A stretch of DNA of 64,000 nucleotides from Rozella allomycis CSF55 (lineage: Eukaryota), in contig KE561265.1 of NCBI GenBank assembly GCA_000442015.1, forward strand, positions 124,001 through 188,000, written 5' to 3'. Shown here one piece after another: positions 11,766-62,369 of this stretch. Below the pieces are notes generated by a model. That model was not told where the DNA came from, did no database searches, and worked only from the letters and a program-made list of their open reading frames with translations. Position 1 is the stretch's first letter, and each line of letters begins with the position of its first letter. The position numbers and the translations under genes are program-made.

Positions 11766-11781
11766 CCAAGCCACGTATTTT

Positions 11782-12903
11782 ATGCGCCTTCCAGTTTTAG
11801 CGCCTGGCGAGATTCCTGCCCCTGAGAAGTATATTCCAAGAAAAGGGGTAGAATCTAGAGTTCCTATGAACCATACTGCATTCAGAATCGCTGAAAGACG
11901 TTATAAAGGAAGAAAGACGCCAATAGATTTTTCTCAAGTTATAGATCCGAGAAAAGGACATGAGCTTCTTGAAAAAATGGAATATAAAGTATCCAAAGAA
12001 TATAAATGGAAAGATTTTGGAAACCGAGCTTTTGGCGCGTGGAGTGTTAAAGGGATGCCAGGTTTTATAGTAATTCCAGAAGCACTAAACGAGCAGGAAC
12101 AAAAAGAACTTGCAAAAAAATGTTATACTTCTTATATAGAGCCTCCAAATTTGAATAGTTTAGATAGAATTTTCAGTATTCCATCAAAAGGCCTTTGGAA
12201 ATCCATGGTAGAAAACACTCCAATTTATGAATATGAAAAATCAGAAAATGAATCATCAGGTTATGACACTGACGTTCCTTATGCGACACAGTATAAAAAT
12301 GACAAAAGGAAAAAGAAAGAAACACCCGTTGTAGATGTCGAAAATGCTATTAGAAGACTTCGTTGGATTATTCTTGGATATCCATATAATTGGTACACTA
12401 AAGAATATGATTTTAATTCCACATTTAAAGCTGTGCCTTTGGAGCTGAATTTAATTTGCAAGACTCTTTCTGAAATGCTAGGATTTGGGCCATATGAAGC
12501 AGAGGCTGGAATTGTAAATTTTTATCAAGAAAAAGACACTTTGATGGGTCATGTTGATAGATCTGAAAAGAATATGAATGCGCCTCTATTCTCCATAAGG
12601 TAATTCCATTATTTTCTTTTACAAAGTTTGGGACAGTCAGCCATTTTTCTCATAGGAGGAAAAACTAGAGAAGATCCTGTAATTCCAATTCTGCTTCGTT
12701 CTGGTGATATCGCTATTCTCTCAGGTGAAAGTCGATGGTTTTATCATGGCGTACCAAGAATTATAGAAAACTCATTGCCAGAGTATTTTATGGACTGCTG
12801 TGACTGTGGAAATGAAGAAAACCATTCTTTCGACTGTTGGAAATTAGTTAGTCACTATCTCAAGGGTACAAGATTAAATATTAATATTCGTCAAGTTAAT
12901 TAA
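11782..12903 (+). CDS. ALKBH1: AlkB homolog 1-type 2OG-Fe(II) dioxygenase
   Basis: LRWIILGYPYNW, EAGIVNFYQEKDTLMGHVDRSE, SRWFYHGVPRI, RLNINIRQV. Confidence 0.92.
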
Positions 12904-12926
12904 ATCGAGCGCAGAATGTTTTATTA

Positions 12927-14192
12927 CTAAACTAATTCAGTATTTTGTTTAGACTTTTTTTGTAACATTAAATCTTCTTCCATCATTTTCTTTAACACGT
13001 TCTTTTCTTTTTTCAGAGTCATTGATGCTACATCAACTTTCCTTTGCCAACTCTTCATTTTATGAGCTAAATCATTAGCAAGTGCTTTTTCTACAACATA
13101 TTCCAACACCTAATTTTATACATTTCATAAGTTAACCTCTGGAACTTTAAAGTCTTCCATCTGTTGCTTTAAGTGTTTATTTAATTTGCTGGCTTGATCT
13201 CGCGCATCCATGACTTGATTTGTTTCAATCTCAAGTTTTTGAATTAAATCCGTTCTTTGGGAAATATCATTTTGAATCGATGAGTTTTTATCCATTAATC
13301 GCGAAAGCTCTTTCTATCAATGTTATACAATTATCGTCCCTACTTTGTATTTTGCCAAAATCTGTGCAATGTTTCCTGCTTGCATTTTCAATTTTAATAG
13401 TTCATTATTTCTTTCTTCTATTTTCGACAGATACTGTTGATTCTCTATTTTTAATTGATCAAAATCAATGGCATGTAAAACTTCACCCATTTCCTCCTTT
13501 TGTCGAAGTTGGGTTTGTAATTTTTGTTTTTGAACTTTCAAAGTAGAATTCTTCAGCCTTGTCTTTTCAATGAATGTTTCCTGTTTTAAGGCATTAACTA
13601 AACCAATACTTTTATTTTTAGCTGGTCTTCAATGTATTTTACAACTCTTTCGGCGATTAATTTACCTGTTCTTGCATTTCTCATTTGAAGGACTTCTTTT
13701 TTGAATTCAATTGTTGTCTTTTTTAATTCAGTGTTTCTTCCATCTATTTCTTCAATTTCCGCCTAATTCAGAATCCTACCGAAAATATACCTTGTATCCA
13801 TCAATAATCCTTTCCCATTTTTCAATTTCTTTATCAATTTCATCTTTCAATTCTTCAACTTCCCTAATGGATACCTCTGCTTTTTGCTCAGGTGTCAATG
13901 TTATTGTTGATTCTGATTCCTTTGTCTTCTCATTTTTCTTCTTTTTTGATCTTTCGTTTTTTTGATTTCCCCCATCTTTTTGAGCAGTGTCTGATTTTGT
14001 TGTTTCATTGTTTTCTCCATCATGCTTTGATGTCGATAAATTCACTCGGGCAAGATGTGATTCAAATAAATCATTCTCGGTTTCTAAAAGTATCACTTTC
14101 TTCTCATAGTCGTTATAAAGCTTCAATAATTCTTCATCTGACAGGTTCTCTAGAAATAAGGTGTCTGTTATGGCGATTTCGGTGTCTGTCAT
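12927..14192 (-). CDS. CCDC113: Ciliary coiled-coil protein CCDC113/CFAP263 (DUF4201)
   Basis: QKEEMGEVLHAIDFDQLKIENQQYLSKIEERNNELLKLK; LETENDLFESHLAR; multi-exon. Confidence 0.85.
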
Positions 14193-14316
14193 TAATTCGT
14201 TGCCATGTTCCAAAACAATTAAAAAACTAGGTGAATTCAAAAGATTAATCTTAACGAAATAAAAATACCCTCAAAGGTTACGTTTATTTTTCTGAAATCG
14301 TACATTTTACAAGGGT

Positions 14317-17152: not shown

Positions 17153-17182
17153 AAATTGGTTAGAAATTTCGTAAATTGATTC

Positions 17183-26991: not shown

Positions 26992-27014
26992 CCCTGTAAA
27001 ACCCTTGCAAAAAT

Positions 27015-27607: not shown

Positions 27608-29093
<1,486 letters not shown>

Positions 29094-29346
29094 TTATGCC
29101 AGGGTTTGCTAAACTAGAATAGCGGTGTAAATGATGCCATAAAATGAATAGAAATGAGTTGATAATTTAAATTTAAATTATTTGACAAATAATTATGATT
29201 TGCGTGTTAGATGTGATTCTGCTAAGTTCCTGTTCTTGCAACAATTAACTACCAGTTTCAATAAAGACAATAGCACTGCTGCACTTTATGAAATTTAAAA
29301 GCTGTATATCATTGCATTCAGATTTCATTTTGCGAAAATTCCACGC

Positions 29347-32300
29347 ATGGGCCAAGGGGAGGAGCAAACGAATCAACCCAAACCCCAAGTTTCATGGGGA
29401 ATATCACCATTATCCTCTAAAATTTTGCGTAAACCCATAAATTTTAATTTAAACCAGATTTTTCTCGAGCATCTCAGTCGTTTAGTCCCAAGGGAAATTT
29501 TGAGCATCCTTTAGACCACAATGGGATATCACCTTGTAAAAAGAAACTTAAAAAGCAACGATCTTCTGTTTTGTTACAGAAAATTTTGACAAATGAAGCT
29601 GCTCCAAAATCGCCATTGATTAACGGGGATGATTTGGATGACATTGATGACGAGGCGTTCATGTTGTTTCCTGAAGCTGAAGCATCCGAAATTGAAAAAA
29701 ATACCAATCAAAATGTTGAAAAGAGTGATGATGTTGATGAGAATGTGAATTTGAGTGTAGTTTTGGATGACAAGGAGAATATTCCACCTGTTGTTGAATC
29801 TGATAGTGAGAGTTGGAATGATATTGATTGGGATAAAATAGAGCAAGAAGCGAATGATGAAGTGGAATCTGTTGAAGTGAAAATGAATGATGAAACTATT
29901 CAAAAGTACAGAAGACTTTATGTATTGCAAATTTTGGATTCACAGTATTCTTTTGAATATGAAGGGGCGACATTGTGCCGACCTGAAAGAATAGTGAAAT
30001 GCGTTGATGAGAAAGAATTGGTAGAGGTTAATGTCAAGCTTAGAGGAGAGTGGAGCCAAACATTAATATCGATTGGTGATTCATGTAACGTTGTTAATGT
30101 AAAGAATGAAAAATTGTTGACTGTGGAGACTTATGTGATTGATGATGAAAGTGATTTGTTGATTATTGTGTGTCCAGATGTAATAATTTCAGGTACAACG
30201 ATAGCCGATAGTTTCAGTTGTCAAAGAAAAGCATTTTTGAATGAAAAAGTAAAATCGAGTGAAAAAAGCGGCGCTTTAATTTTGGGTGTGATTCTGCATG
30301 AACTTTATGAAATTGTAATGACTAGCCAAATAACCAACATGGCAATCATTAAACAAAAGCTTTATGAAATAATAAAAAATAATTTATTGAATCTGTATGC
30401 GATTGATTATGACGAAGAGAAAGTAATGAAAGAGGCAGAACCAATACTCGCTTCCATTCCTTCATTTTTGAGTAAATTACAACAGCAGGGGTATAAGAGA
30501 ACAAGAGAAACAGAAGAAACAATAAATAGTTATGTTTTAGGCATCAAAGGAAAGATTGATGCAACTGTTGAACTATTTGATTGGCAAGTTGTTCCATTTG
30601 AATTGAAAACTGGCAAGTTTACTTCTCCATCCCACAATGCGCAAACAATGCTTTATGCTTATTTATTAAACGATTATTACGATATAAATGTGAAAAAGAC
30701 TTGGCTGTATTACGCTTCAACTGATTCTTTATGTGATTTAAAACTAGTTAAACGAGAGATGAGAAGTATGATTATTGGAAGAAATGAGCTGGCATTTTTC
30801 TTGAATAAGAATCAGATTCCACCAATGATAAACAATGAACATCAATGCAAAAAATGTTATCAGTTAGATTCTTGTTTAACATTTAACGTTGCATTAGAAA
30901 AAACTACTTTTCCTATTTCTGAAATTTACCAAACAAAAATTGGTCATGCAACACAAAAATCTATTGAATTTTTTCAAAGTTATTTAATAGCAATGGATGA
31001 AGAAGAAAAGTTGTTGCAATTTATTAAAAGAGAAGTATGGACTGAGAGTGTTGAAGAAAGAGAAGCTAGTGGAAAGTAAAATTGTGTCAAATGAATGATT
31101 TAGGTGTTTTATTAATTTACGAATGGATTATTGCATTGAAGATAAAACAAAGATATCTGGATTTGGCAGATTCAAATGCAAGTTTAGGGGAACTAGGAAA
31201 TTTACAGAATCAGTTTTTAACGTTGGGGACCCAATTGTTATTTCAGTCAGTGGAAAGTTTTCAATAGCAATTGGATATGCCACTGTGATTGATAAAGAAT
31301 CGTTTGAATGTTTTGTTGATAGAAATTTAAATAAATATACAAATAATACTTTTAGAATTGATAAAGATGAGTTATCTTCAGGGTGGTCATCTGTTAGAAA
31401 TAATCTTGTTCAATTATTGATGAAAGAAGAAAAGTTGAAAAGATTGATTGCTGATTTAGAGAAACCCATTTTCTCTCTTAATAAAACAATAAATTTTACA
31501 AATATGCATGACGATTTAAATTTAGATCAAAAGGAAGCAATAAAGAGAGTAATTCAAGCGGAAGATTATGTGATGCTTCTAGGTATGCCAGGGACAGGGA
31601 AAAGTACATTGATTGCTCATCTTGTTTCGATTCTAATCAATCAAGGAAAGAGTGTTTTAATAACTGGATACACTCATTCTTCAGTTGATAATATTCTTTT
31701 AAAATTAAAACAATTAAATTTAGACTTTTTAAGACTTGGAAATTCTGAAAAGATTGACCCTGGTCTAATAGATTATGTAGATCCAAACTTTAATTCATTA
31801 GATGAGATTAACAAATTTTATTCAACTAAGAAAATTGTTGCTTGCACGTGTCTAGGAATTTTCCAACATCCAATATTCAAAAAGAGAAAATTTGATGTTT
31901 GCATTGTAGATGAAGCATCGCAAGTTACGCTGCCTGTATGCATTGGGCCTTTGCTGCATTCTAATAAATTTGTTCTTGTGGGAGATCATTATCAACTTTC
32001 TCCATTGACAAGAAGCAGTAAAAACGAACTTTCTAAAAGTTTGTTTAAAAGACTTTGTGAAGCTCACCCAAACAACATTTCTCGTCTTTCTTTTCAATAC
32101 AGAATGAATTCTGACATTTCTTTACTTTCTAATCACTTATTTTATAATTTTCATTTAAAATGTGGGAATGAAAAAATTGCTAATCAATCACTAAAAATAT
32201 ATTCAAATTGTTTCTGTAATTCAAACTGCTTTATTCAACTTGTTTGTCAATCAAATGTTCTATTTCTCAATACAGATACTATAGGCTTGAATTTGGAACA

Positions 32301-35900: not shown

Positions 35901-36127
35901 GGTCCTAAATGACTCTTAAATTTATTCAAAGTTAATAAACGACTTGAAGCTGTAAACACATAAAGTTTCGTCTCCCAATTTCCTTTCAACGAGTACTTTG
36001 TACCGAGCACTTTAAAAAGATCCTGACCCAAATCCTTTAAATTTATCAAATAGTCTATGAATTTCTCGACATCCGAATTGCTAATTTTCTATTTAAAACC
36101 AAGGTAATCATTCACCTCAACATCCAT
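32992..36127 (-). CDS. SMG1: SMG1-type PIKK kinase, compact (~1,020 aa, 4 exons)
   Basis: LLKNSDDLHQD, YLLGIGDRHLDNILL, VHVDFNIAFDQGRTLKIPETVPFRL, FATC ending MYHGWSAWV; N-terminal KFKSHLGPCNKTLEAL and SWFLRLR resemble the SMG1 domain. Confidence 0.82.
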
Positions 36128-36190
36128 TTCGTAAATTTTGTAATTAGATTATGAAATATAGAATTGCCTATACAGAACCCCTGACATTGG

Positions 36191-38233: not shown

Positions 38234-38344
38234 CATGTATTATATATACAAATAAAATATTTTCTGAAATGAATTACAATAAGTAATTGACGTTTATTTA
38301 CTCTACTTTCTTCACATTCTACCTCCTACGCCAGCCACAATAAA

Positions 38345-39315: not shown

Positions 39316-39450
39316 AAAAATCAATTTTAATAAATTGTATCATTAATTCAAAATTTGATGCTTAAAAGATTTCAACTTTAAATTCCTCGTTGGCAAAAGG
39401 CCAATTAATAGTCAATTTGCGAAATTTGTTTATTCGTGCTAAGGGTTGAA

Positions 39451-40524: not shown

Positions 40525-40575
40525 TCTGTAATAACATTAAACAAAACTTATCGCACATATAAGCCACACATAATC

Positions 40576-41031
40576 ATGCAGGAAGGGCTTCATGATGACC
40601 CTCTAACACTTATGTACACCAATACGGAGAGTAAAGTATTATTTATGGTAGTATATTGAGTATATAGAACTTTTTGAAGAACTATTTTCTCTGACCTTTT
40701 CCCAAGTTGAGTACAAGCTGCCATTGTACAATAAACAACAAAAGCTGATTCCCGCGAGTAATCAAAAATTTTGATTTATTTGAGCATCGGACGAAAACAT
40801 GAAAACTAAGATCAACGAGAAGATTCAAGACATTCTAAATGCAAAAGATAATTTTGAGACCAACATTGATTCAATTTTCTGCTTATCTGTAAACAGGAAA
40901 AAAATATACTAATTTAAGAATATAAATTATGAAAATAATCAAGTTATGTACACTGAATACGTAAGAACGCTACAGGAAGGAATCCATGAATTGGAGGCTG
41001 AATTAAACAATATTTCCAACTGTTTGAAGTA
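40576..41031 (+). CDS. Small multi-exon helical hypothetical protein (weak Med21-like look)
   Basis: Open frame recovered with three 25-30 nt introns: MQEGLHDDPLTLMY...DILNAKDNFETNIDSI...LEAELNNISNCLK*. Confidence 0.45.
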
Positions 41032-41436: not shown

Positions 41437-41762
41437 TATTTGATATACTTTTCAGAATTTCTTATTTATCTTATTCAATTCAATCCAATGGTCGCCGGTC
41501 GGAGTATTTATTTGAAATTCTAAATGTATTTCCGGTTATATAGAAGTTAATATAGTAGGATTTATAAGTGCCGGGTTTTGTTATTTTTGCATAATACTTT
41601 GATTATTCGATCATGTATGATAAGAATATTTTTTTGATATTTTTTTATCTTTTATTTTCTGCCCGCAAAAATAGTTTACTCACTTGACAGAGGAACAACG
41701 AAAAATATTTATTTATTTATTTATTGCTTTCTTTTGTATACCGTAGATGGGCCNACATAACA

Positions 41763-42441
41763 ATGCAGGACAATGACCCAACAGCGGAATTTTTGGCTAA
41801 AGAACAAGAGTTGTTAAAGTCAGTGGGTGAATCTTTCAATGAATTCACGTCGCCAATATATTCGCCGGATATAAGTATGAACCCACATGAAAGCCTAGCC
41901 AATGATGTTCAATACGTATTAAATCAAAATGTCTTTAGTTAAGTTAGGCTCTGCAATTGACAAAATGAATGTTACTCAAAATGAATCTGCGAACCCACCA
42001 GGTGACTTTTCAAATAACAGTCTAAATACTTTAGAATCGCAAAAAATTAAGTATAAATTAGATATTATCTTTATTTAGTGAATGGAAAGTTAAATTCGAC
42101 TCAATTGTTGCCGAGCGCGATCAAAAGAGTAAGGAAAGACACGAACTAATTTTAAAACAAGCAGAAGAAGACCTGAAAAAATTTTACGCTGAACATAATG
42201 ATAAGAAAATAAGAAAACACGAGTTTAATTTAAGGGAAGAAGAGGAATTTATTAAAATTCGTGACGAAGATCCGGTCGGGCACAGATGGGATGTTGTCCA
42301 TCAAATGGTACATTTTTGGTAATTTAAGAAATATAGGTGGAAAGTGTCACAAAACCTAAAGGTTCAAAAGATACTTCTCGAATGAAAGGGCTGTTCAGTG
42401 AGTTGAAGGGAAATCCCCAAGCACCAGGCAATCAGATATAA
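41763..42441 (+). CDS. CLC1: Clathrin light chain
   Basis: DPTAEFLAKEQELL, EWKVKF..IVAERDQKSKE, RWDVV, KDTSRMKGL...KGNPQAPG; three 28-29 nt introns. Confidence 0.85.
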
Positions 42442-43325: not shown

Positions 43326-44028
43326 TTATAGACTTTTTAAAATTAGTTTGTACGTACTAAGTATTCCAGCCCCCAATCCGCACGAAACTTGGCCTATCAT
43401 AAACCTTTCGATATGAAATACATCATATAGGCAAAATCCAAAATCAAAAAGAAGTTTGGTAAATGAAATCAATTGCATTTTTAACTTCGCTATTTCCTTT
43501 CCCTTAACACTTTCATCTTCTGAATTTTGGAGGTCTTGATATGATCTAGAAAGGGACTTCATATTTTCAAATAAATCAATATGAATACATAAGAACCATG
43601 CAAGTGCAGAGAAACGCTCTGCCTTTCTAAGAATGATCTTGTCCTTGATCAATGACATTTTCCCCAAACATACAATATCGTCAGAAATATCATTCAGAAT
43701 AGACACCAGAGCATTAACTAGTTGAATACGGTCTTCAGTATTTTTATAGCCAGTGTCCTTTTGAAGAATTTGCTTGAATTCTTTTAGTGGTTCTACAAAG
43801 TGCACTAGCCTCAATATCTTTCTGGTTTGTGATAAATTGGAAACAAGAATTTTAAGCTTTGATTCTTGCTTCACATGAAATAGTATACGCAATTTAGCCA
43901 AATACTGCACTATTTTCATTATTTTGTCTCTTCCTTCTGTTTGAGCAAAAAGTTTAGAAATTAATTTTAAACTAACTGAAAGAAATTAATGATGTAAACA
44001 TACTATAATTTGTATTATGTGAATCCAT
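43326..44028 (-). CDS. PEX11: PEX11-family peroxisomal membrane protein
   Basis: QTEGRDKIMKIVQY, LSQTRKILRL, C-terminal CGLGAGILSTYK. Confidence 0.85.
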
Positions 44029-44119
44029 CCAATGTTAAATATCCGAATTTTTTTTTAAATATACAAACTGTTTTTATTGATTAATTAAGCATTGTACTTG
44101 TTTCTTCTTGAGACGGAAG

Positions 44120-44370
44120 ATTTCATGAACCTTCGTGGAAAACGAATTTTTTACTATATTCATGAAGCTTTCAAAAGAAATTTGTGGAGAACCAGGTCAT
44201 AGCCTTGATCAATTCTGAAAATTTAATTAATAAATAAAAAATGTTGATATATTTTTTAAAAAAAGTTAAATTTTCTGAGCAGATCAAGACAATGACCTGA
44301 TTCTCTGACAAATTTCTTGAAGGCTTTATGAATATAGTACAAATTCGTTTTCCACGAAGGTTCATGAAAT
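44120..44370. repeat. Imperfect inverted repeat (~108-bp arms, AT-rich spacer)
   Basis: ATTTCATGAACCTTCGTGGAAAACGAATTT... at 44120 is the reverse complement of ...AAATTCGTTTTCCACGAAGGTTCATGAAAT ending at 44370; similarity continues inward with mismatches. Confidence 0.92.
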
Positions 44371-44568
44371 AGAATTAGGAATTTCTGGGAAAAATGTTAT
44401 CCAAATTCTTTTTGAAAAAGATTCGCAATCGAAAAACCTATGGAACACTGTTTCTTCTTTAACTTGACATTTTGAAGACATTGCAGAAACATCACTAAAC
44501 CTTGTGAATCTTTTATTAGTTAAATATACTCCATGATAAATTTTCCATAATAACTGAGTAATATACAC
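44362..44568 (-). mobile_element. Degenerate non-LTR (L1/Tx1-like) retrotransposon fragment, zf-RVT domain
   Basis: LLWKIYHGVYLTNKRF...SSKCQVKEETVFHRFFDCESFSKRIW matches the zf-RVT pattern W..H..L.T..R..CxxC..ET..H.FF.C...IW (first Cys lost); no RT core seen. Confidence 0.68.
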
Positions 44569-44746
44569 TAATAAAGATCACCTGCCACCTGGCAACTTAT
44601 CTTCATTGCAGCCGAGAATTTTGATCGATCAATCATTAATCAGTTAAGGAAGCTTAAATTTCATGTGACAGAAACATTTATTTATATTTATAAGATATAG
44701 CTTTACAACTAAAATATTTTTGAAAGTTAACCACTAATTATCAGGA

Positions 44747-46774
44747 TTAAATGAGAATGAAGTGTCCCAGTACCCTGGGGGCGTTGAAGTCGTGAGTTTG
44801 AGATTGTGGTTTTTCTTTCTTTTTCTCTGAAATTGGCCTTCTATATGAATATTTTCAAGAAACTAGAGTCTATTGAGAAGAAAGCTATTACTTTGTCGCA
44901 ACAATGACAACTCTTTTTATGGGGTATGGGCTCGGACTCAAGTTCTGGTATATCGTCAACAGGAATCGCATTAAGTATGGGTGATGATGATTTTTCTGAA
45001 ATAATAGCCGGTGAATGGCTTTTAATATCGTTTATAAAATCAGGGGCATCATGAATTTCACTTTCGCTTATTTCAAAGGATTTCGGGTTTTTCGAGTGTA
45101 AAAATAACAGCCGAATATAAATTTCTCGAAGTTTATCGTTTGGCGAAGCATTTTCATGATTTAGCTTTAATAACTCATAGATCGAATCTACAAGTAGCTT
45201 GCTGTTTGTCATGATAGTTTTCGAAATTTACAACTTACAATCCTGTAAAAAGTCAAATTTTATTTCTGCTTGCCTGACTTTTTTTCTTGTATTAACATTT
45301 CAGAAAATTCCCTGATCTTAGATGCCATGACGTGGTTTAATCTATCGTTTTGCTTTATTTTGTTCGAAAGCTGTTCTACATTTGCAGTTAACTCTACGTT
45401 TGTAGTTACAACGCTCTTGGTTAATTCCATGACCTCTTTTGACAAACTATCCAAATCATTTGGCATCGAGAAATTGATTGTGTCGCCTTTTTTGAAAGAG
45501 TCTTCTTTTCTACACTGGGACAAAATGGACTTCAACTGCTTCAACTGTTGTTCCAGCGACCTCTTGGATGATTTTTCTTTATCTAAGGCTTTTTTCAAAG
45601 CATCCTCGTACTTAGCTTTCTCTTTAATCACAGAATTCTCAATTTCCTTTTCATATTTTTTCACTGTTTCATATTTGAATTGTTCAATTTCTTGATTTAA
45701 AAGGTCAAGCTGGGCCTGATGATGGTTTTTTGTGGACTCGATTTCATCTTTCAAGGATCTTATTGTATTGTCCCGGTTCTAAATTGTTTATCGAAATTAG
45801 GATACCTCTATTTCATTTTTAATATTACCGTTGTTAATTTGGATCGCCTCTTCATATTCTTTGACTTTTCTTCTCAAATCGTCAAGTTCTGCATATAGCA
45901 AAAGTAATTCATCTTCGTCAGGTAACTTTATTCCTATATTTTTGTTAAACAAAGTGGCAATAAATCCTAAATTCAATCGACTATGACCAGACACTATATC
46001 TGCTGGAGTTACGAAGTATCTACAGTTCAATTTCTCAGCCTCTTTAAGCACTATTTCTGCTCTTTTTATGTGATCTGATTCTTTGAGAACCTGGAAGATG
46101 TTTTCTCTGTTTACTATTTTCGGGGCAATCTGCGATAATAAGATTCCATATGCCTCGCCATCAGATAAATCTTTGCTAAAATTTACAATGGATTTATTGG
46201 ATCCTGCCTTTTTCAAATGATAGTTAAACCATCGAAGCAATATCTGTTCCGATTTCAAGGACAAAAGGGTTTGAAGAGTTTCACCTTTTTGGATTAATCT
46301 TATTAATTCAGGATGAGATACCAGATTAACTTCAGCCAGAAGATTTGCTCGTATTATTTGCCATAAGAGCCCCAGAACAAGATCGCTATTCATGTCTAAC
46401 AAATCATTTGCCCCCAAATTTACAACAATCAGCTTTGCTTTTTTTGCTGCTTCAACTACAACATTTAAATTTTCTGTAACTTCAAATATGACTTTTGTTT
46501 TTGGCTGATTCAATTGCTCTAAATTGACTTTGTATGAAAGTCTTTCAAAAGCCACAGTATGAGGAAAGATATATTCTAATACATGAGCTAAAACTATTCC
46601 ATCTCTCAATTTTGTTAATAGAGTTTCTGGTTTTAATGGTAAATACGACCCTATTTTTGCAAACTCAGGAGAACCTTGTAGAATAGAATTCAAATGGTCA
46701 CAGTATGCAGAACATTCGTTGATAAACTCCTGGTCCTTCTCATACACATTTAATCCGGCTAAATTTGAAGACAT
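44747..46774 (-). CDS. Fimbrin/plastin-like single actin-binding domain (CH1-CH2) fused to a long coiled coil
   Basis: KLRDGIVL, TENLNVVVEAAK, LVLGLLWQIIR, LKSEQILLRWFNYHLKKAG, NFSKDLSDGEAY, RLNLGFIATLFN; then heptad-rich region. 3' end less certain. Confidence 0.8.
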
Positions 46775-46792
46775 TTTGAACGTAAACAAACA

Positions 46793-51659: not shown

Positions 51660-52099
51660 TATACGACCCCGGTTAATTAACCAGCCAATTAAAACCGAAA
51701 TTGTTATAGATCAATAAAGCCTTCTTAATTATCTTTAAGTACAATTTCTCATTCGACTCTTTGTATACTTCTGCTGATGACTTAGTATCTATATTCTTTG
51801 GCTATTCGTCTAAACTTTGAATATTGTTTTATTCCCTTTATTGCACCGAGACTCACAAGTAAAAACACATTTAACCCTGCTTCTACATTTTGGATTCTCA
51901 ATATAATGATTGTGAATTCTAAGCCCAGAACAAAAATGTGAACTATTGATTTGAAAGTTTTTTAAACCAGAAAGTTTGAAACCATCTTTATTACAATGTT
52001 TTAAGATTAATTACAATAATCATATCTCATTATATACAGATGATCTAAAATTTTTCATTAGTATATTTAATTCACCAATTACTGAGCCACGTCTTTATA

Positions 52100-53653
52100 A
52101 TGAGTCGATTTGTTAGAGCTTCAAAGTTTCGTCATGTATTTGGAACGGCAAATAAAAGAGAAGCATGCTATGATGATGTAAGAGTATCCCGAACAGCAAT
52201 AGACTCTAACATTGTCAAAGTGAACACTCGTTTCATGTCTGTAAACTGGGAGATAGCAGGAGGTAAATCACATTTCCTTTTATAAAAGGCGGCGCATTTT
52301 GTGTTTGGCCTTTAGAAAAGCCAGGTCGCCTTCCCGTTGATGTACCACTCTACGTTGGTCACACCAATACAGTACTAGATACCGACTTTAATCCTTTCAA
52401 TGAATATGTAATAGCTTCATGTTCGGAAGACTGCACTGTTATGGTTTGGAATATTCCTGAAGGTTGAAAACATGATTGCAACTAATTTAGGTGGACTTAC
52501 TGAGAATTGCTCAACACCTGCCTTAACACTTTCAGGTCATGGCCGAAAGGTGAATAATGTATTGTTTCATCCGACTGCAGAAAATGTGTTAGCATCGTCT
52601 TCTTTTGACCTTACAGGTAATTGAAGATCTTTATTGAAAGTAGTTAAATTATGGGATATCGAAAAAGGGCAGCAAAAGGTGGAGTTGGTGGGGCATTTAG
52701 AATTTGTTCAGAGCATGTCTTGGAACTGGACGGGAAGTTTGCTCGCAACCACGTCAAAGGATAAGAAGCTCAGGATCTTTGATGTTAGATCTGCCAAGAT
52801 GGTCCAAGAAGTGGAAGCCCACCCAGGTGTTAAAGGTTCAAGATGTGTCTGGTTAGGAGACAGTGATAGAATTGCCACCACCGGCTTTTCAAAGACTTCA
52901 GATAGGCAATTGGCAATTTGGGACTATAACAATTTGACAAATCCTTTGAAGCTTGAAAATCTTGACACCTCTTCCGGAGTAATAATGCCATTTTATGACA
53001 ATGATACAAATTTACTATTTTTGGCGGGGAAAGTAATTGCTCCCATATGAATTTACAAGGGCGATGGCAATATAAGATATTTTGAAGTTGTTAATGATGA
53101 TCCATTTATTTACTACGTAAGCGAATATAAAAGCTCAGAGCCTCAAAGAGGCCTCGGCTTTCTGCCGAAAAGAGGCGTTAATGTCAACGAGATCGAAGTT
53201 TGCAGGGCGTTCAAAGTGAACACCAATATGATTGAACCTATTTCCTTTAAAGTTCCTAGAAAAGTAACTTTTTTGGTTTACTTTGATATAGTCTGATTCT
53301 TTTCAAGCAGATCTTTTTCCAGACACAATTGGTGACAAAGCTCCTCTCACAGCTGACGAATTTTTTGATGGGAAAGATGCCAAACCTATTCTCATTTCAT
53401 TAGAGAAAGGGTAAATTTATGTTGTGGCTTTTATAGATTTGTTCCCTCTGAAAAGAAAGAGTTCGTTTCTCAAACTGTCACAAAGTCTCCGTCAATCGAG
53501 TTGGAAGCCATGAAGATTATGTCGGACAAAGAAGTCAGAGAAGCGTTCCATCAGCAACGCAAGGAGATTGAGGAACTCAAAAATCAAATAGCACAAAAAG
53601 ACGTGACAATTCGTCAACTTGAAATTCAACTTGAGGCAGCAAAAAACAAATAA
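52100..53653 (+). CDS. CRN1: Coronin
   Basis: [77 protein letters not shown]-terminal coiled coil. Confidence 0.96.
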
Positions 53654-53710
53654 ATAAATATATTTTTTCAAAGGGGTGTTTTATTTAAGTTTGTGAAAGC
53701 CAAAATACGT

Positions 53711-53851
53711 CTACGGTTAGAAATGTTCAAGTAAAATGTTAAAATAGCAAAAATGTCAGAAGGAAGGCAACATAGCTGTCCATCACGCGTCAGAACAGGT
53801 CTGAAGTTAATCATCATAAAAAAAGTAAAGGAAAAATGTTCAAATACTTAC
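53711..53851 (-). other. 141-nt intron of a putative non-coding snoRNA host transcript
   Basis: 5' GTAAGT, CTAAC branch point and TAG end; no ATG/ORF in the short flanking exons; AATAAA downstream. Confidence 0.72.
53756..53817 (-). ncRNA. Box C/D snoRNA with two 18S rRNA guides (yeast Gm1428 and Am420 equivalents)
   Basis: Minus strand: C ATGATGA, guide CAGACCTGTT, D' CTGA, C' GTGATGG, guide TGTTGCCTTCCTT, D CTGA; the guides are antisense to conserved SSU rRNA AACAGGUCUG and AAGGAAGGCAGCA. Confidence 0.9.
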
Positions 53852-53920
53852 AGTTGTTTTTATGACAGGGGTTGTGCGATTGTTTTTCAGTTTTTATAGT
53901 GTGAAAAATGAAATTTACGA

Positions 53921-55451
53921 ATGCCAAAACCAAAAATTCTTTTTATTTTAATCGATGGATTGGGTGATGTTGGAATAAAGTCTAAAGATTTTCAAACACC
54001 ACTTCAATTGGCTTCCACATCTCACTTGGACCTTTTGTCAAGTACATCATTTATTGATTTGTAATAGAATATGGGCTAAATGGAATGATAGATCCTGTCG
54101 ATGTAGGTTTGGCCTGCGGATCAGATACAGCCCATTTAAGTCTTTTCGGCTATGATTCAAGACAAGTCTACAGAGGCAGAGGTGCATTTGAGGCTATGGG
54201 GGCTGGGCTAGATTTACAACCCGGAGACATAGCATTCAAAGTATTTCATCTTAATAGAATTTAAAAGAGCAATTTTGCTATTATTGATGATTCGTCCAAT
54301 ATAGTGATTAGCAGGAGAGCCGATAGAAATTTTGAACATTCTGGTCCCGTTTTCTGCAAAGATATTGATAACAAGTACATAATATATTTGTAATAACAAC
54401 TGAATAATTGATTTGAACGGAGAAAAGATACAGATTAATTGCAAATACGCAACTGAACACCGATGCGGTATTCGGATAAGAGGGGAGTTTGCATTGTCTG
54501 ATCAAATCACTGGAACTGATCCATTAAAAGACAAGTAAATTATAAAGATTCGTGTTATAGTCGATTACTGTTGAAGTCTGAACCATTGAGCCATGATGAC
54601 GAGGTTGCAGTCAGAACCAGTCAGGTAGTCGAATCTTTTTGATTTAATAGATCGTTAATAAAGTTTCTGATGAATTAAGAGAATTATTAAAACAACACCC
54701 AGAAAACGAACGAAGAAATCTAAAAGGGATGACGCAAACGAATGTGGTACTCTTGCGAGGTGCAGGTGGTTTACTGGAGGTAATAATAAAATTCTTCTTC
54801 AATCTATCAGATTCCATCCTTTATTTCAAAAACTTCACTAAAGGGTTTCATGATTGCGCCAACTTGCATTATAGCCGGGCTAGGGAAATGCATTGGTCTA
54901 GGTATTACACATCTTCTTTTCTTCTTTAGATGTTATTAATGTGCAAGGTGCAACTGGTGACTATAAAACAAATCTAATTGCCAAGGCAAACGCTGCAATT
55001 CAAATCATTTCTGGTAAGTAACGAAAATAATGGTGATAAGAAAGTTACGATTTTGGTTTCCTACATATTAAAAGTGTCGATGACGCTGGGCATGATAGAA
55101 ACATAGATTTAAAAATTTCATGGATTGAAAAGGTCGACCAAATGATTTCAAGAATAATTGATCAGGCCAAGGCAGTAGAATGTCTTGAGAATGTAATTAG
55201 TGAAATTTTAAGGTTATTAGCTTTGGATTATAGTTACTGGAGATCATTCTACACCTGTTGAATATGGTGATCATAGTTGCGAGCCTGTGCCATTTGTTCT
55301 CTGCAAATTGCGAAATATTTTAAAGGATGACAAAACATTGGCTGATGATGTTCAGCGTTTTAATGAAATATGTTCATCTAAAGGGGCATTAGGCAGATTT
55401 TCCGGTTTTGAAATTATGAATAGCATACTTCCCATCATTATGAATGAATAA
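53921..55451 (+). CDS. apgM: Cofactor-independent phosphoglycerate mutase, archaeal-type (ApgM / alkaline phosphatase superfamily); ~10 introns
   Basis: ILIDGLGD, ACGSDTAHLSLFGYD, YRGRGAFEAMGAG, TEHRCG, FLHIKSVDDAGHD, VTGDHSTPV. Confidence 0.9.
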
Positions 55452-55540
55452 ACTCAATTTTAACTTGCGAACTTTATCCAACATTCATTGAATTTATTTT
55501 GAAGTTCAATTCAGCTTTTAAGCGTTTCTCAAATTTCCTT

Positions 55541-56388
55541 ATGCGATTACCAATTCGGTTTCCTCAATTACACACTAATATATTGAAATCAAACATATTT
55601 GTATATAATTATAGTGCTACGTAATGTTCATCAAATAAAACAATCAAGTCCATATATCGTGGAGAGACGCAATGATACTTACACTCAAAGACGACTCAAA
55701 AAGCAATTCAGGGCCAGAAGTGCTTTTAAGCTTTCGGAAATGCATGAAATGAGTCCCTTAATTAATCCAGGAGATGCAGTTGTAAATTGTTTAGTGTTTT
55801 GAATGATGTAGTTGGATTTAGGATGTGCACCGGGATCATGGTGTCAAGTTGCCGAAGAATTGGTTGGACCTAAAGGAATTGTAGTCGGAGTAGATAGAGT
55901 TTGTAATTGGAATTGATTTTTTAAAAAAGACGTTCCTCCCTTAACATTAACAAGGTTCATTGTAGGAGATGCAACTCTACCCAGTATTCAAAAATCAATT
56001 AGGGAGCAATTAATTGAAAAGGAATACTTTGACGTTGTTCTGAGGTAATCATTAATGGTATTATTGACAGCGATATGTGTCCAAATCTGATAGGCATAAA
56101 GAGTGCAGATCATCAAGCCAGTCTAAATATTGTAAATGAGGCACTGAAAATAGCACATGGCATGTTGAAAGAAAATGGCACTCTCCTCGTGAAATTGTTT
56201 TTGTCTGGCCATGAGCGATGTAACAAGTCTCTTAACCTAAAATAGTCGTTAAAAGCAAATTGGAAGAAATTTTCAAAAAGGTTAAAATTGTTAAACCGCC
56301 GGCATCAAAAAAGGAGTCGGCTGAAATTTACATCCGTGCAGAAAAGTTCCATCCATTGAATAGAAAATACCCACTTTCGTTGATATAA
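55541..56388 (+). CDS. MRM2: FtsJ/RlmE-type rRNA 2'-O-methyltransferase, mitochondrial type
   Basis: [46 protein letters not shown]. Confidence 0.88.
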
Positions 56389-56424
56389 ACTTTTAAATGA
56401 TGTTTATAGTTATTTGAACATAAA

Positions 56425-57133
56425 TTAATTTTTCTTTTGAGCTTCCTGAATGGAGACTAGAATTTGACATCCTCTTTTCAACTGTATAACGTTAATAACT
56501 TGCTTCAACAACCACACAGGAAATACAACATAAAGAGCATTAGTTGTAAAACTTTTCATGAATTCAAATTGTTCTAATTTAATGATATACAAAAAGACAT
56601 AAAATAATTCTGCGAATGCGCATACAAGAAATAATGCTGTTCTATTAGTGTAATATAACTTGAGAATCGACCATCCCTTATCTTTAACATTCTTATGGCT
56701 GGATTCTCCCTGTCTTAGAGAACTACATTTACTTTGAAACAATTTGATACCTAAACATTTGAATGTAATGAGAGCTTAAGTCAAGGCCAAGTAAAAATTG
56801 GAATATCATACAAAAGTTTGGATATAATATACACAAGTAGCAAATCAATCCTGCAGTCGTAGATCTAGTTCAATTTGTAAAATACAATCACCTATCTGTA
56901 ACCATATCCAAAACAGCACCTAATTCAGAGCATTGATTGAAATATCTCGCCGCCAAACCATCAAATGCGTCCAAAATAGATGAGAGCAAGTATACTACAA
57001 TTGCATATCCGTGATAATTTATCTGCATGTAATAAAATGATAAAATTGACAAAACGATACGAACATATCCTGATTATAGACCTTTGTTGCTAGTACCTAT
57101 AACATTTGGAATATAAAAGTAGATTCGTGACAT
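56425..57133 (-). CDS. PIS1: Phosphatidylinositol synthase (CDP-alcohol phosphatidyltransferase)
   Basis: YIPNVIGYVRI, LDAFDGLAARYFNQCSELGAVLDMVTDR, LDLSSHY, SHKNV. Confidence 0.93.
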
Positions 57134-57149
57134 TCCAAATGTGGCTTGG

Positions 57150-58926
57150 ATGTCAAAATTTGTTAAAGAAAAAGAGCTACAATGGAAGAAGGTAGAGTTG
57201 GACGAGATTGATCATATGAATATGGATCTTGATGGATTTTACATGCTCGAAGAGATAGATGGAGTAGATGTTGTAAAGCTAGATCAGGCTGGTGGCCTCA
57301 AGACTATAGGCTTTGAAATGGTAAATTTTATCACTATATAAACAAAAGAAAAATATTAAAGCGAAAAAGAAAAAGTCTAAAGCTGCGTGGAGTGTTACTG
57401 AGACTACTGAAATAGAAGCTCCATTACATGTAGAAAGCGAAGACCAAGAAGAAAATGAAATAATTAAAGAGAAAGACGCAGATGAGTTGGAAGAAAATAA
57501 GATTATCGAATCAAATGATGAGATTGACATTACCAATTCATCATGGCAAGGATATGATTTGAATGAAAAGCTAACTAAACAACTTATCAAAGGTGGATAT
57601 ATTGAACCAACCATGATTCAACAAACAGTTCTTTCTTATTTATCAAACAATCCATACGCAAATATTCTCGTAGGATCCGAAACTGTAATAAGAATATAAA
57701 TTATTCATTAAATAGGGTTCAGGTAAAACTCTTGCATTTGTCCTCCCGCTTATAAATCTGCTTTCCACAAATCAAACTGGGCTGATAATTGCACCTACAA
57801 GAGAGTTGGCTACACAAATTAGCCAAGTTGTTTCAATATTCACCAAAGTAAATACTTATTTTGATTATAAAAAAGGCTACGTTACTCATTGGTGGAATAT
57901 CATTGGAAAAACAGCGTAGACTATTAAGTCACCTTGATGAAACAAAAGTTGTGATTGCCACCCCTGGCCGTTTTTGGGATTTACTTTGTGAATCTGAAGA
58001 ATTAAAAGAATTTTTAATAAAAGTTCAAATTCTAGTTGTCGATGAAGCTGATCGTTTGTTTTACAAGACCAAAAAGATTAACGAAGAGTTTGAAAAGATT
58101 TTAAAATATTTATTAGAAGTTGTTTTAAATAAAAATAAAAAGCTTCGATTTTGGCTATTTTCTGCCACCATTCAGTTGGCAGATTTCGATTCAGATTCTT
58201 GTTTTGGAAAATTCGTTCAAGATGGAAAACTGAAATTTAAACAAATTGGATCAAAGGCCGCAACAATTAAAGACAGACTGAGTGTCTTTAAAGTAGAATG
58301 TCTAGAAGAAAGAAAAGGTTGCTTTCTATACAAATATTTACATGAAAAGACTGGAAGAATAATTGTATTTTTCAACAGCATCAAATTGATTGAAAAATAC
58401 ATTTTAGTATTAAAGAAATTATTTAAAAGCAGAAAGATTTATTCTCTTCATGCAAAACAAAAGCAAAAAGACAGATTGTCAGCGCTTGAAAAGTAAAACA
58501 TCTTTAAACTAGGAATAGATTTGAAAAGAACGAAGATGCAATCTTAATTTGTTCTGATGTTGCTGCAAGAGGTTTGGATATTGCAAACGTGGATGTTGTG
58601 GTTCATTTCCACGTCCCAAGAAATATTGACGTAAATTAAATTCTTAATGTTTTTTTCAGGTTTATTTGCATAGAACTGGTAGAACTGCTCGCTTAGATAA
58701 AGTCGGAGAGTCGATTGTTTTTGTGTCGCCTAAAGAACACAGCGCGTTTGATAAATTGGCTAAAATGTTTGAAATTCAAGTTGGTCTCAAAGTGCAAAAG
58801 CATTCCATTGAAATGAATAACATCAAAAAGTTTCAAAAAGAATTTAATTTAGCCTTTGACTCGGTAAAAGAAACCGAAAGTAAGAAATATTCTAAATCGA
58901 GCATTTCCGAAATGGAATTGGAATGA
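57150..58926 (+). CDS. MAK5: DEAD-box RNA helicase, MAK5/DDX24-like
   Basis: N-terminal WKKV...[64 protein letters not shown]. Confidence 0.85.
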
Positions 58927-59003
58927 AAATGATCCTCAATTTAATTCATAAACTCAGAATAAATTAGTTTAATTACAGTATTTTAATTGGAAAATTTTGT
59001 TAA

Positions 59004-59350
59004 ATGTCCAGAGAAAGAAATAGCACCGATTTTGAACTTCACAATGATTTCCACCCTTCCCAATTTATCCAAAGTCCTCGCCCTATTCCTAAAAAAGCCA
59101 TAGCATATGCCTCAATATTATTCCTACTCGGTTCCTTTTTTCTAGCATTCGGAATACTTTTGTTAACTAATATCATACCCGAAACAGTATAAATTGACTA
59201 AATTATTAATAGAATGTGAATGATAGATCTATTCCAATGATCATTCTAGGTAGCCTAATGTTCATTCCTGGTTTTTATCACGTCAGGATAGCCTACTACG
59301 CATACATGAAAGTACCAGGATACGATTATTCACAAATTCCAGAGTTTTAA
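59004..59350 (+). CDS. TMEM230: TMEM230 (DUF872) membrane protein
   Basis: IPKKAIAYASILFLLGS, LMFIPGFYHVRIAYYAY..VPGYDYSQIPEF. Confidence 0.88.
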
Positions 59351-59379
59351 ATAAATAAAAAGGTTACAATTTATATGCT

Positions 59380-61052
59380 TTATTGACTCTTTTCAGAAAT
59401 ATCGGCAGTTAGAGCAGATTGACTATCAGCAGTTGCATCAACAGGGCTTTCAAGATTTTCATCCGTTTTCTTAATTTCTTCAAGTTCAATTTTTTGAAGA
59501 GCTTTAGCTTTAGCTTTTTTGTCAATGTACTGGCTCTTGAATATTAAAAGTATAAAAGCAATCATGGCCAAAATCCATGATATCTTAAATAATCCCTGAT
59601 GACGGTTAAAGAAGCCTGTAATAGACGCAAGTTCTTTAGCTCTGCGAGTTTTAAATGACAAATCGTCTTTAGTCTCTCCAGGCAACAATGGGACGTCGGT
59701 TTTAAGTAACCAAAACCCTAAAAGACCGGCCAAAGAGGGTGCTAATCCAACATAAATTCCAGAAAATAATCCTTGGGCGGTGGCTTGAAGTTCTATTGGC
59801 GCTTCTTTTACAGCAACCATAACTCCACTGGCTGTCATACAGCCGAAACTGATACCTTTAAATGCTTCTGCCAAACATGCAATATACACATATGTTTGAA
59901 TGCCTTTTATAAATGTAACAAAATTGACTTACCTGTTCCTACAGGAAGAGCAACGTGAATTCCCATACGAATAATCATTGAGACTTGAGCAGCTACCATA
60001 AGCTTAAATACTCCAAATCGCGCGACCAGGTAACGAGAAACAAAGAAGAAAATAAGCTCAATAGCTTGACCACAGTTAGAAGCTAAACTAACAAAAGTCT
60101 TGTCACCACTGAGGCCATCCAAATCATCTTCAATATAATTGGCCATAAAATGAGAACCAATAGCTCTGGAAACACCATTAAATAACACAATAAGAAGAAA
60201 AAATCCGAATTTTGGATTGCTCAAAAGTTTTCCAATAGATTCAAAATTCGATGGCCTTTTCTCATTCTTCTTTTCTAACTTAGCAGATTTCGCGATTTCC
60301 GGATCTTTTTTCTCGCCAATTGAATAGATGCTAACTCCATTCTTCGGCCTGTCAGAAGGAATAAGAAAAAATCCAATGACAGTGAACAATGTAAAGGAAA
60401 TACCTACAGCTGGAAAGATGGAATCATATGAATATTTGTCGATTAAGTAACCCATAAATTGAACGATGACAGTATTTCCAAGAGTTCCCCAAAGTCTTTG
60501 ACGTCCGTAAAGTTCTTTTGCATTCCCTTCACACTTTGATGAGTTAAGCATAGCGACTATAATACGATCCATCAATGGATAAACAGCACCATTGAAACAA
60601 TTAATGACTGAGCCAACTGCAATGACTGCGGCGATTGTTTGGGGCAAAGTCTCTTCGGTGGCCCTAGAAATACATTTAAAAAGAAAGAAGGCAGCACCCT
60701 GGCAAAGGGTCGTAATTAGCAAAGTTGTTTTGGGACATCTGAATCGGTCTGCAATGTACGTCCACAACGGGGCTGACGCAAACGCCACAAATGACAGTAC
60801 TGCAGCGATGATACCGTATTGTTGAGCTGGGATACCGAACACATCTCTAAAAAATCTTGTACGAAAAGTCTATTTAAGAATATAAAGTATTATTACATAG
60901 CAAGTATTAACTGCGACAAGTAAAACAAAGAATAGAATCTTGGGATAGATTAACAAGTCTACTTCCCAAAACTCTCTTGAGAAGATACGGCTTTTTCCGT
61001 TAATCTTTTTGGATTCTTTTGACTTTTCAACAGCTTCCGAGTTTTGATTCAT
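59380..61052 (-). CDS. MFS transporter, MFSD6-like
   Basis: APLWTYIADRF, YGRQRLWGTLG, APIELQATAQGLFSGIYVGL; ~12 hydrophobic segments. Confidence 0.88.
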
Positions 61053-61344
61053 GGCTGTTTTAGTGGCGCAGTGTTCACTTGGCGGATTTTTTATTTTTGT
61101 GGCTGAGTGAAGGTGAAGGGTTTAAAATAGGAAACAATTGCTTATTTCTTAAATCAACGCCACTCATCATAATTTAAAATTAAAACCCTTATAAGCGACA
61201 GCGTGTTAATTAATTTATAACATCAGTTTTCAAGGGGTTAACTATGCTGCATGGATGACAATCATTGAATTACCTCACTTTGTATATTTATAGCATAATT
61301 CTAAATATAGCATTTATTTTAAATGAATGATTCTATAGTTTAAT

Positions 61345-62345
61345 TTAAACCTTGCTTTCCCCTTTGATATCAAAGGTCTGTTCCGGCGTTAAATAAAATA
61401 AAGCAAGGCCAGCCAAAACCAAGGAAAAGGATCCAAAATACCAATACTCCAGCTAATTTAAAAATAAATTTGAAGATACTTTTTGGTTAAACAAGATCAT
61501 GTAGCCTATGAGGGTGTAAATGTATGTTGTCAACAAAGACAAGTTTAAAGCGGTCGCTGATGTATGTAGTATTACAAAAGGAACTAAAGAGTAAAAAACG
61601 AATATAGCTAAAGCATAAAAAGCAAGAAAAGTAGCATTTGAAGAATCCATTTGCGTTATTTTATGATACTCCAAAGCAAAACTACTCGACGTGAAATGAA
61701 AAACTTACCTCTGCGAGATTCCAAAAATTAATCCAAAAGCGCTAAGGAGCCCCAAATATTCGTACGAGCCCACATAATTTAAAAGGTACTCTTGAACTGT
61801 GTTGGCTAAGGCATACAAAAAGGCACCGCCAACAGCTAAAAGCATACCTTTCATATAAGAGGAACCTATTATATTAATAGATAATTTTTACTTTGTAAGT
61901 CATTTGCTGGTTGATTGGTTTGAACTATGAGGAAAATCAAACCTAACAAACAAAAGATTACGCCTATAAAATGTTGTTTTCGATATTTAGTCTTGAAAAA
62001 TATAACACTCATTATCATTGCAAATGGCACAGTCATGCTGTTGGCTAGAACGATGCTAGTCACGCTGGCATATTCAAATGATGTTACAATAAGAAAGTTT
62101 GCTTCCAAATCAATAATCGCATTCAGAATTATTAATGCCAATATTTTTCCCGTGACAACTTTTTTAATGTTTCTATAATTGAATGGAAAATACGCTAAGA
62201 AGATTAGAAAATAGCAAATTGTTGCTTGAAAGGCGGGTTTTACGAGTCCTGCATCAAAGTATTCATTCAATAGATTTGTAGTAGTCAAGCAAAGAGATAA
62301 AAGTTGGCCTAGCGCAAAAATCAACAGTCGAAGTGAACCAAACAT
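61345..62345 (-). CDS. SLC35F1/F2-like (DUF914) DMT transporter
   Basis: LGQLLSLCL, IDLEANFLIV, GAFLYALANTVQEY, SATALNLSLLT. Confidence 0.88.
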
Positions 62346-62369
62346 TTGCGTGGCTTGGACGGAAAAAAT

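Follow-up and report, generated by a model that had tools for sequence, protein, structure and literature searches.

The DNA considered here is a window of 64,000 nucleotides from Rozella allomycis CSF55 (contig KE561265.1, positions 124,001 to 188,000 of the forward strand; all coordinates below count from the first letter of the window), and the element in question is a short sequence, CYRAGCCACR, which lies a few nucleotides 5' of a subset of start codons and which had first been noticed on the opposite strand as the recurrent 9-mer GTGGCTTGG. The window has a G+C content of 34% and is packed with genes that are broken up by very short introns (the 46 introns in the spliced models measure 26-34 nt, and 43 of them have a GTAA donor). 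Head-to-head neighbours are frequently almost in contact, seven of the 14 such pairs being separated by 30 nt or less (11, 16, 16, 18, 23, 24 and 30 nt, 138 nt in total).

Spliced models from a splice-aware script over-merged neighbouring genes, so 42 start codons were set by hand from open frames, Pfam searches of single exons and N-terminal features typical of the families, each of the 42 being the first ATG to follow a stop in its frame. Matches of single-exon translations to CAF1, 2OG-FeII_Oxy_2, DEAD, SLC35F, RNA_pol_A_bac and RNA_pol_Rpc34 back the gene names proposed in the first-pass annotation, and residue 7 of the SLC35F protein aligns to position 6 of the Pfam model. Start choice also drew on features that we take to be typical of their families, namely MWVFGYG at the N-terminus of ChaC, YIPN at that of PIS1 and an LQWKKV block in the MAK5-like helicase, and the N-terminus encoded from the coronin ATG at 52100 is presumably the usual start of that family. 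Two of the 42 starts are doubtful (17183 and 55541), and the minus-strand gene near 63,940, the content of 44,030-44,840 and a possible separate helicase start at 31123 are absent from the set. Sequencing runs X1, X2 and X5 behave as DNA and cover the motif sites, with no difference at a motif site among the rows listed for these runs; none of the runs listed with this stretch is recorded as RNA, and run X10, an RNA run tied to it by species label alone, gave only chance matches of 18-33 nt.

The window contains exactly three copies of the 9-mer GTGGCTTGG, one on the minus strand at 11766-11774 and two on the plus strand at 57141-57149 and 62350-62358. Reading of the sequence confirmed that each copy lies between divergent ATGs, in gaps of 16, 16 and 24 nt, and that in two cases (the TOE1-like and MAK5-like genes) the 9-mer adjoins the ATG, making GTGGCTTGGATG twice, all as the first-pass annotation had it. 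The three gaps are as follows.

11766..11781, no strand: head-to-head gap of 16 nt between the CAF1/TOE1-like ATG at 11765 (minus) and the ALKBH1-like ATG at 11782 (plus); Pfam CAF1 and 2OG-FeII_Oxy_2.
57134..57149, no strand: head-to-head gap of 16 nt between the PIS1-like ATG at 57133 (minus) and the MAK5-like ATG at 57150 (plus); Pfam DEAD.
62346..62369, no strand: head-to-head gap of 24 nt between the SLC35F ATG at 62345 (minus) and the RPC40 ATG at 62370 (plus); Pfam SLC35F and RNA_pol_A_bac.

The layout CAT, 7 nt, GTGGCTTGG, ATG is found both at 11763-11784 (read on the minus strand) and at 57131-57152, and the third gap, at 62343-62372, reads CAT, 4 nt, GTGGCTTGG, 11 nt, ATG. Unrelated genes flank the three full copies, which are therefore not duplications. 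Dinucleotide-preserving shuffles give an expectation of 0.21 copies, with three or more in 0 of 100 shuffles; recurrence alone is nevertheless unremarkable, as 89 other strand-collapsed 9-mers with at least five G or C occur at least three times in the window, 11 strand-collapsed 9-mers with at least six G or C among those that do so. The significance of GTGGCTTGG lies in its position rather than its recurrence, because its copies are confined to tiny gaps, three of three falling inside the 138 nt of the seven head-to-head gaps of 30 nt or less.

On the opposite strand, the same three sites present AAGCCAC and then a purine, shortly before the start codons of the ALKBH1-like, PIS1-like and SLC35F genes. 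GCCAC lies 4-10 nt 5' of eight of the 42 curated starts, always in sense for the gene behind it, these genes being ALKBH1-like, PIS1-like, SLC35F, RPC34, coronin, an MFS transporter gene and two small open reading frames (ORFs). The sites are listed here, with the three from the tiny gaps first.

11766..11775, plus: CCAAGCCACG, 7 nt 5' of the ALKBH1-like ATG at 11782; the minus strand is GTGGCTTGG adjoining the CAF1/TOE1-like ATG at 11765.
57140..57149, minus: CCAAGCCACA, 7 nt 5' of the PIS1-like ATG at 57133; the plus strand is GTGGCTTGG adjoining the MAK5-like ATG at 57150.
62349..62358, minus: CCAAGCCACG, 4 nt 5' of the SLC35F ATG at 62345; the plus strand is GTGGCTTGG, 11 nt before the RPC40 ATG at 62370.
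3583..3592, plus: CTAAGCCACA, 8 nt 5' of the ATG at 3600 of a 146-codon ORF with a hydrophobic N-terminus.
38330..38339, plus: GCCAGCCACA, 6 nt 5' of the RPC34 ATG at 38345.
40559..40568, plus: ATAAGCCACA, 8 nt 5' of the ATG at 40576 of a small multi-exon ORF.
52082..52091, plus: CTGAGCCACG, 9 nt 5' of the coronin ATG at 52100.
61062..61071, minus: CTGCGCCACT, a weaker variant (GCGCCAC), 10 nt 5' of the MFS ATG at 61052.
61099..61104, minus: a second, distal AGCCAC, 46 nt 5' of the MFS ATG, which is the 61099 site of the first-pass annotation.

Anchored alignment of the eight sites gives the consensus CYRAGCCACR, in which G-C-C-A-C is invariant, the preceding A is present at seven sites, a C stands four bases before the G at six and a purine follows at seven. 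Taken in order of position along the window, the distances from the end of CCAC to the ATG are 8, 7, 6, 8, 9, 7, 10 and 4 nt, and at ORF3600, RPC34, ORF40576 and coronin the spacing is kept at 6-9 nt despite 51-440 nt of intergenic DNA. An assembly N lies inside GGGCCNACATAACA at 41745-41762 on the plus strand, just before the ATG of the clathrin light chain gene at 41763, and depending on that base this could be a ninth GCCAC-like site.

The direction of the element can be separated from that of a partner gene in long gaps, or when the neighbour upstream points the same way, as is the case for ORF3600, RPC34, ORF40576, coronin and MFS, and at these sites AGCCAC is sense five times and antisense never. 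The motif had been proposed to point, as GTGGCT, toward TOE1, MAK5 and RPC40, with GTGGCT variants at 38333, 40562 and 52085 (minus strand) and 61099 (plus strand) upstream of further genes. All four variants are present, but they face their genes as AGCCAC and therefore contradict the proposed direction, the gene seeing AGCCAC and not GTGGCT at five of five separable sites. GTGGCT stands in sense before an ATG only three times, in the same tiny gaps where AGCCAC faces the partner gene.

Sense windows covering -30..-1 of the 42 starts contain 765 different hexamers, of which AGCCAC shows the strongest enrichment, with seven of its 18 copies on both strands falling in 1,050 of 127,990 positions (0.8%; hypergeometric p = 7.2e-11), while GCCAC has 8 of 41 copies and AAGCCAC 5 of 12 in these windows; GTGGCT, the orientation first proposed, has 3 of 18, which are the three tiny gaps. 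When 1000 random sets of 42 ATGs were drawn from 2,505, none gave p <=1e-8 for any hexamer and the best reached 3.1e-7. The full consensus CYRAGCCACR matches five places in the window against 0.28 expected, and all five lie directly before curated starts. Without recourse to annotation, an ATG is found 4-9 nt 3' of seven of the 18 AGCCAC copies and at 4-10 nt for none of the other 11. Out-of-frame upstream ATGs are missing from positions -10..-3 of the 42 starts (0 vs 4.1 expected, p = 0.016), and in -40..-11 there are 10 vs 16.5 expected (p = 0.06, not significant); the gap at -10..-3 is an indirect hint of short leaders. Position -3 shows no preference for A (T 15, A 13, G 10, C 4).

The coding copies of GTGGCT that the first-pass annotation had mentioned near 34350 and 46550 are indeed present. 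Good matches to the motif also occur on the antisense strand of the PIKK gene, as TCAAGCCACC, TCAAGCCACA and TTAAGCCACA at 33936, 34354 and 34509 (plus); none of the three has an ATG at the usual distance, and they may be chance matches or antisense starts.

Our data suggests, with a probability that we would put at about 0.55, that CYRAGCCACR is a putative orientation-specific, initiator-like core promoter signal situated 4-10 nt before the ATG of the gene that lies in the AGCCAC direction. Since the motif combines strict orientation with a nearly fixed and very short distance to the ATG, it behaves like a signal at the transcription start, and from this we infer that it positions initiation and that the leaders are very short. 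Transcription by RNA polymerase II would begin at, or directly after, CCA (pyrimidine-pyrimidine-A, with a purine next at 7 of 8 sites), which would produce leaders of roughly 5-12 nt, or about 6-12 nt should the A of CCA be the first base. As half of the head-to-head pairs are no more than 30 nt apart, an element 4-7 nt before one ATG also adjoins the ATG of the partner, and because it lands there it was seen as GTGGCTTGG. Of the first proposal, the non-random promoter-proximal element for which no matching fungal motif was found has held up, whereas its direction and its assignment to an RNA-processing and ribosome-biogenesis regulon have not.

Several points weigh against an initiator-like role. 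All statistics come from one 64-kb window with eight motif-bearing genes, the starts were curated after the motif had been noticed, several of them are supported only as the first ATG of an open frame, and the ALKBH1-like gene may instead start at an internal methionine 28 codons further in. Only 8 of the 42 genes (19%) carry the motif, which is thus not a general initiator. Of the 18 AGCCAC copies, 11 are coding and show no hint of a function, the three antisense matches in the PIKK gene among them. At five of the eight sites the base after GCCAC is A or T, which fits the human initiator consensus BBCA+1BW, but three of the eight have G instead. The depletion of upstream ATGs is weak and its numbers are small.

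The closest parallel is found in the Microsporidia, of which rozellids are reported to be the sister group (PMC10716661). There, a CCC-like and rarely a GGG-like signal is described immediately 5' of the coding sequence and is itself preceded by an AAATTT-like signal; leaders are shorter than 7 nt by rapid amplification of cDNA ends, and promoter signals are shared within a 35-bp head-to-head gap (Peyretaillade et al., 2009; PMC2803860). The CCC-like signal is also credited to Cornman 2009, as cited, and is noted in Amphiamblys; the triple-C motif is described as specific to microsporidia (PMC5381614). The Rozella motif resembles this signal in being sense and C-rich, in lying no more than about 15 nt from the starts (4-10 nt at all eight sites) of genes in a compact genome, and in belonging to putative promoters squeezed into head-to-head gaps. 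It differs in that its core is GCCAC within a 10-nt consensus and not a C triplet, CCC being found within 40 nt at 0 of 8 sites, and in that it marks 8 of 42 genes (19%) where the microsporidian signal marks nearly all. Plain CCC or GGG does occur within 25 nt of 11 of the 42 starts by hand count, about the level expected from base composition by a rough estimate. AAATTT is enriched before starts as in Microsporidia (11 of 244 copies in the sense windows of the 42 starts, p = 7e-6), yet AAATT or AATTT is found within 40 nt at only one of the eight GCCAC genes. The lack of an A preference at -3 mirrors what is reported for Encephalitozoon cuniculi, whose leaders are shorter than 7 nt. CYRAGCCACR is therefore best described as a sequence that appears to act like the microsporidian start-proximal signal without being a member by its defining features.

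Two other core promoter elements invite comparison. Like the human initiator (BBCA+1BW; PMC5287114), the motif is short and strand-specific, and the near-fixed short distance to the ATG is what would be expected of a start-overlapping element if leaders are short; unlike it, the conserved part reaches 4-5 bases further upstream (CYRAG), and G replaces the A or T of the W position at three of the eight sites. In fission yeast the HomolD box, CAGTCACA/G, is bound by Rrn7 and is described as lying 39-52 bp 5' of the start site and as TATA-like (PMC10253590). It too is a fungal core promoter octamer of similar letters (xAGxCACR) in TATA-less housekeeping promoters, and it is paired with AGGGT/ACCCT, which is also seen before several starts here. 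HomolD works in both orientations, however, while the motif here is strictly oriented. Membership was rejected, since CAGTCACA/G has one exact match in the window, in coding DNA, with 1.79 expected, and since a start 39-52 bp 3' of the motif would fall inside the coding region, including what we take to be the coronin N-terminus.

PAC and RRPE, the elements of the yeast ribosome-biogenesis regulon, are short motifs common to ribosome-biogenesis genes, as the element first proposed would be, and are position-flexible upstream elements; their sequences differ from the motif and no regulon signal is seen here. Further identities were tried and set aside. A non-coding RNA gene was discarded, the window holding 0 tRNAs and 0 Rfam matches. 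A splice acceptor does not fit, as the base after AG is C in 4 of 46 introns and CCAC follows in 0 of 46, and no GTAA stands 26-34 nt 5' of the motif's AG at any aligned site; for a splice acceptor or a trans-splice site alike, the conserved part of the motif would be on the exon side. A start-codon context of the Kozak type does not fit either, as spacings of 4-10 nt to the ATG give no fixed register. No TATA box stands at a consistent distance 5' of the motif across the aligned sites, and if GCCAC and a following A/T run were a TFIIB recognition element plus TATA box, the start site would fall inside conserved coding sequence.

A literature search on GTGGCTTGG and its complement returned primer-type matches only among those listed for each, judged by titles and abstract openings, and searches on Rozella promoter, intergenic or triple-C/CCC motifs found no description of a Rozella promoter motif. 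Scanning metagenomes with the first exon of the ALKBH1-like gene gave 16 loci at 44-50% GC that are not close relatives; L011, the one of the 16 that was read, has ordinary fungal gene spacing.

Among the alternatives, the one that survives best is a shared two-way element, a 9-10-bp motif that would position initiation on both strands in the tiny gaps, with the GCCAC half serving one gene and the CCAA/TTGG half its partner (TOE1-like, MAK5-like and RPC40), at leaders of 0-10 nt. We regard this as possible but doubtful. It would account for the three partner genes, which have no GCCAC, CCC, GGG or AAATT/AATTT (the tabulated near-ATG motifs) within 40 nt, and for the fact that all three head-to-head copies have the full CCAAGCCAC with its CCAA extension, while the other five sites vary at the first three positions. 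Five of the 42 starts have TTGG directly before the ATG, compared with a frequency of 0.0088 for ATGs in general (p = 3.4e-5), and the genes concerned include three without GCCAC (Josephin at 10532, BipA at 36191 and PEX11 at 44028). On the MAK5 strand, the gap at 57134..57149 contains an out-of-frame ATG at 57139, 11 nt ahead of the MAK5 start codon, which suggests initiation of MAK5 transcripts within the 9-mer. In E. cuniculi, a palindromic AAATTT signal in the 35-bp gap between two divergently transcribed ribosomal protein genes has been proposed to serve both (PMC2803860). Against these points, there are only three cases, the motif is not palindromic, and in the third it lies 11 nt from the RPC40 ATG, so that abutment is not constant.

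Two linked claims go further, and we advance them jointly only as a tentative proposal. The first is that Rozella has a minimal two-way RNA polymerase II promoter of 16 bp (CAT, 7 nt, GTGGCTTGG, ATG), in which a single element of 9-10 bp would fix where transcription initiates on either strand, leaving the mRNAs almost without leaders. The second is that a start-codon-proximal promoter architecture predates the Microsporidia and would in Rozella be longer and more specific (CYRAGCCACR).

The regulon first proposed, in which GTGGCTTGG would be a directional element for RNA-processing and ribosome-biogenesis genes under a dedicated regulator, now appears unlikely. On the GTGGCTTGG side stand the genes for a CAF1-family nuclease, a MAK5-type DEAD-box helicase and the AC40 polymerase subunit, all concerned with nuclear RNA, but this grouping is post hoc with n=3 and the functional category was picked after the genes had been seen. 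Sense GTGGCT precedes only 3 of the 42 starts, each explained by AGCCAC facing the partner, with no further sense copy within 30 nt among the 42, and the gene sees AGCCAC at all five sites where direction can be separated. As the direction toward TOE1, MAK5 and RPC40 is visible only in gaps too short to separate the two genes, the regulon reading is unsupported. RPC34, which is also a polymerase subunit, has the opposite orientation, and other RNA and translation genes in the window are without the motif (an FtsJ-type methyltransferase, RuvB-like, MetRS, PTH2 and BipA). The eight genes behind AGCCAC are of mixed function, spanning lipid synthesis, transporters, coronin, a dioxygenase, a Pol III subunit and small ORFs.

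It is equally improbable that the motif works at the level of the mRNA leader, as an extended start-codon context or a ribosome-recruitment signal. It is strictly sense and very near the ATG, and its core resembles the vertebrate GCCRCC context. The ATG spacing varies over 4-10 nt, however, without the fixed register of a start-codon context, no A preference at -3 is seen among the 42 starts, and in the 16-nt gaps the transcripts would need to start within the neighbour's coding region.

An ordinary site for a sequence-specific activator, for instance a three-finger C2H2 protein (9 bp), that is near the ATG only through the shortness of intergenic DNA, has if anything slightly poorer prospects. 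The length of 9-10 bp and the invariant core would suit it, and a GTGGC core is common to the yeast Rpn4 PACE and Crz1 CDRE sites, but such a site would leave unexplained a spacing that stays at 6-9 nt where 51-440 nt of intergenic DNA are available, the strict orientation and the functionally mixed gene set. Chance recurrence, for which the 89 GC-richer 9-mers that recur at least three times in the window might speak, is very hard to credit when three of three copies lie within 138 nt of tiny gaps, the hexamer p = 7e-11 is approached by 0 of 1000 random-ATG sets and five of five 10-mer matches precede starts.

Other short sequences were seen next to starts in the window. ACCCTTG/CAAGGGT fills the 11-nt gap at 14306-14316 between a CCDC113-like gene (minus) and a signal-peptide gene (plus) and is also present in the 23-nt gap at 26992-27014 between PTH2 (minus) and dUTPase (plus); AACCCTGG precedes the RuvB-like gene 29093 (minus) at 29097-29106 and ORF 9745 (minus) at 9772-9781, and AAGGGTT (39438-39446) precedes COX10. 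With up to one mismatch, AACCCTGGCA has seven matches in the window versus 1.9 expected, three of them before starts, and the ACCCT/AGGGT-type motif may be a second start-proximal signal. TTTACG is likewise enriched in the sense windows of the 42 starts (4 of 22 copies). TTTACGA(A) runs into the ATG of the PIKK gene at 36127 (36128-36135, minus) and of a metalloenzyme gene at 53921 (53914-53921, plus), and also into the ATG at 31123 (31116-31123, plus), inside DNA2 as modelled as one gene; DNA2 may be split at 31123, or its helicase half may have an internal start. One more position is listed with these sites.

17168-17175, minus: TTTACGA(A).

The 10-mer ACATTGGATG, which includes the start codon, begins the BipA-like gene (36184-36193, plus) and PEX11 (44026-44035, minus). 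Forkhead-like GTAAACAAACA / TGTTTGTTTAC is found in the 18-nt gap at 46775-46792 between a calponin-homology gene (minus) and a TPR-repeat gene (plus) read as TTC30/IFT70-like, and again about 10 nt before the myosin II start at 3212 (minus), at about 3222-3232. Two E2F-like sites, TTTGGCGCGCAAAATTGGCGCG, lie at about 7004-7030 in the 94-nt gap between ORF 6995 (minus) and ChaC 7090 (plus), and ACGCGCCAAA-type 9-mers occur three times in the window. In the RuvB-like gene (29061-29093, minus) an intron is read immediately after the ATG (ATG, then GTACAG...AAG), with the remaining N-terminus in the next exons.

The region 44050-44600 is a high-copy repeat, with a word depth in run X1 of about 7800 versus about 250 in its flanks, and with many rearranged joints and loose ends, and no gene model could be placed there. 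Across 52991-64000, a 15-kb contig of run X5 departs from the window in 107 letters and 28 gaps along 11 kb, and at many of these positions both forms are seen at part depth in runs X1 and X2, which looks like two haplotypes about 1% apart. Several indels fall close together at 61153-61264, in the interval from the MFS start to the 3' end of SLC35F.

Head-to-head gaps of 16 nt raise the concrete question of how so short a stretch can accommodate two polymerase II promoters, and if a 16-bp two-way promoter were true, most of each pre-initiation complex would sit on the neighbour's coding sequence. The motif would also be a cheap start-codon signal for annotating rozellid genomes, in the way that the CCC signal is reported to have let 18% of E. 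cuniculi gene starts be corrected (PMC2803860). If CYRAGCCACR marks transcription starts, short leaders and start-codon-hugging signals would be no microsporidian invention; such promoters would already be present in intron-rich, mitochondrion-bearing relatives of the Microsporidia, which would help to date the shrinkage of promoters during genome compaction.

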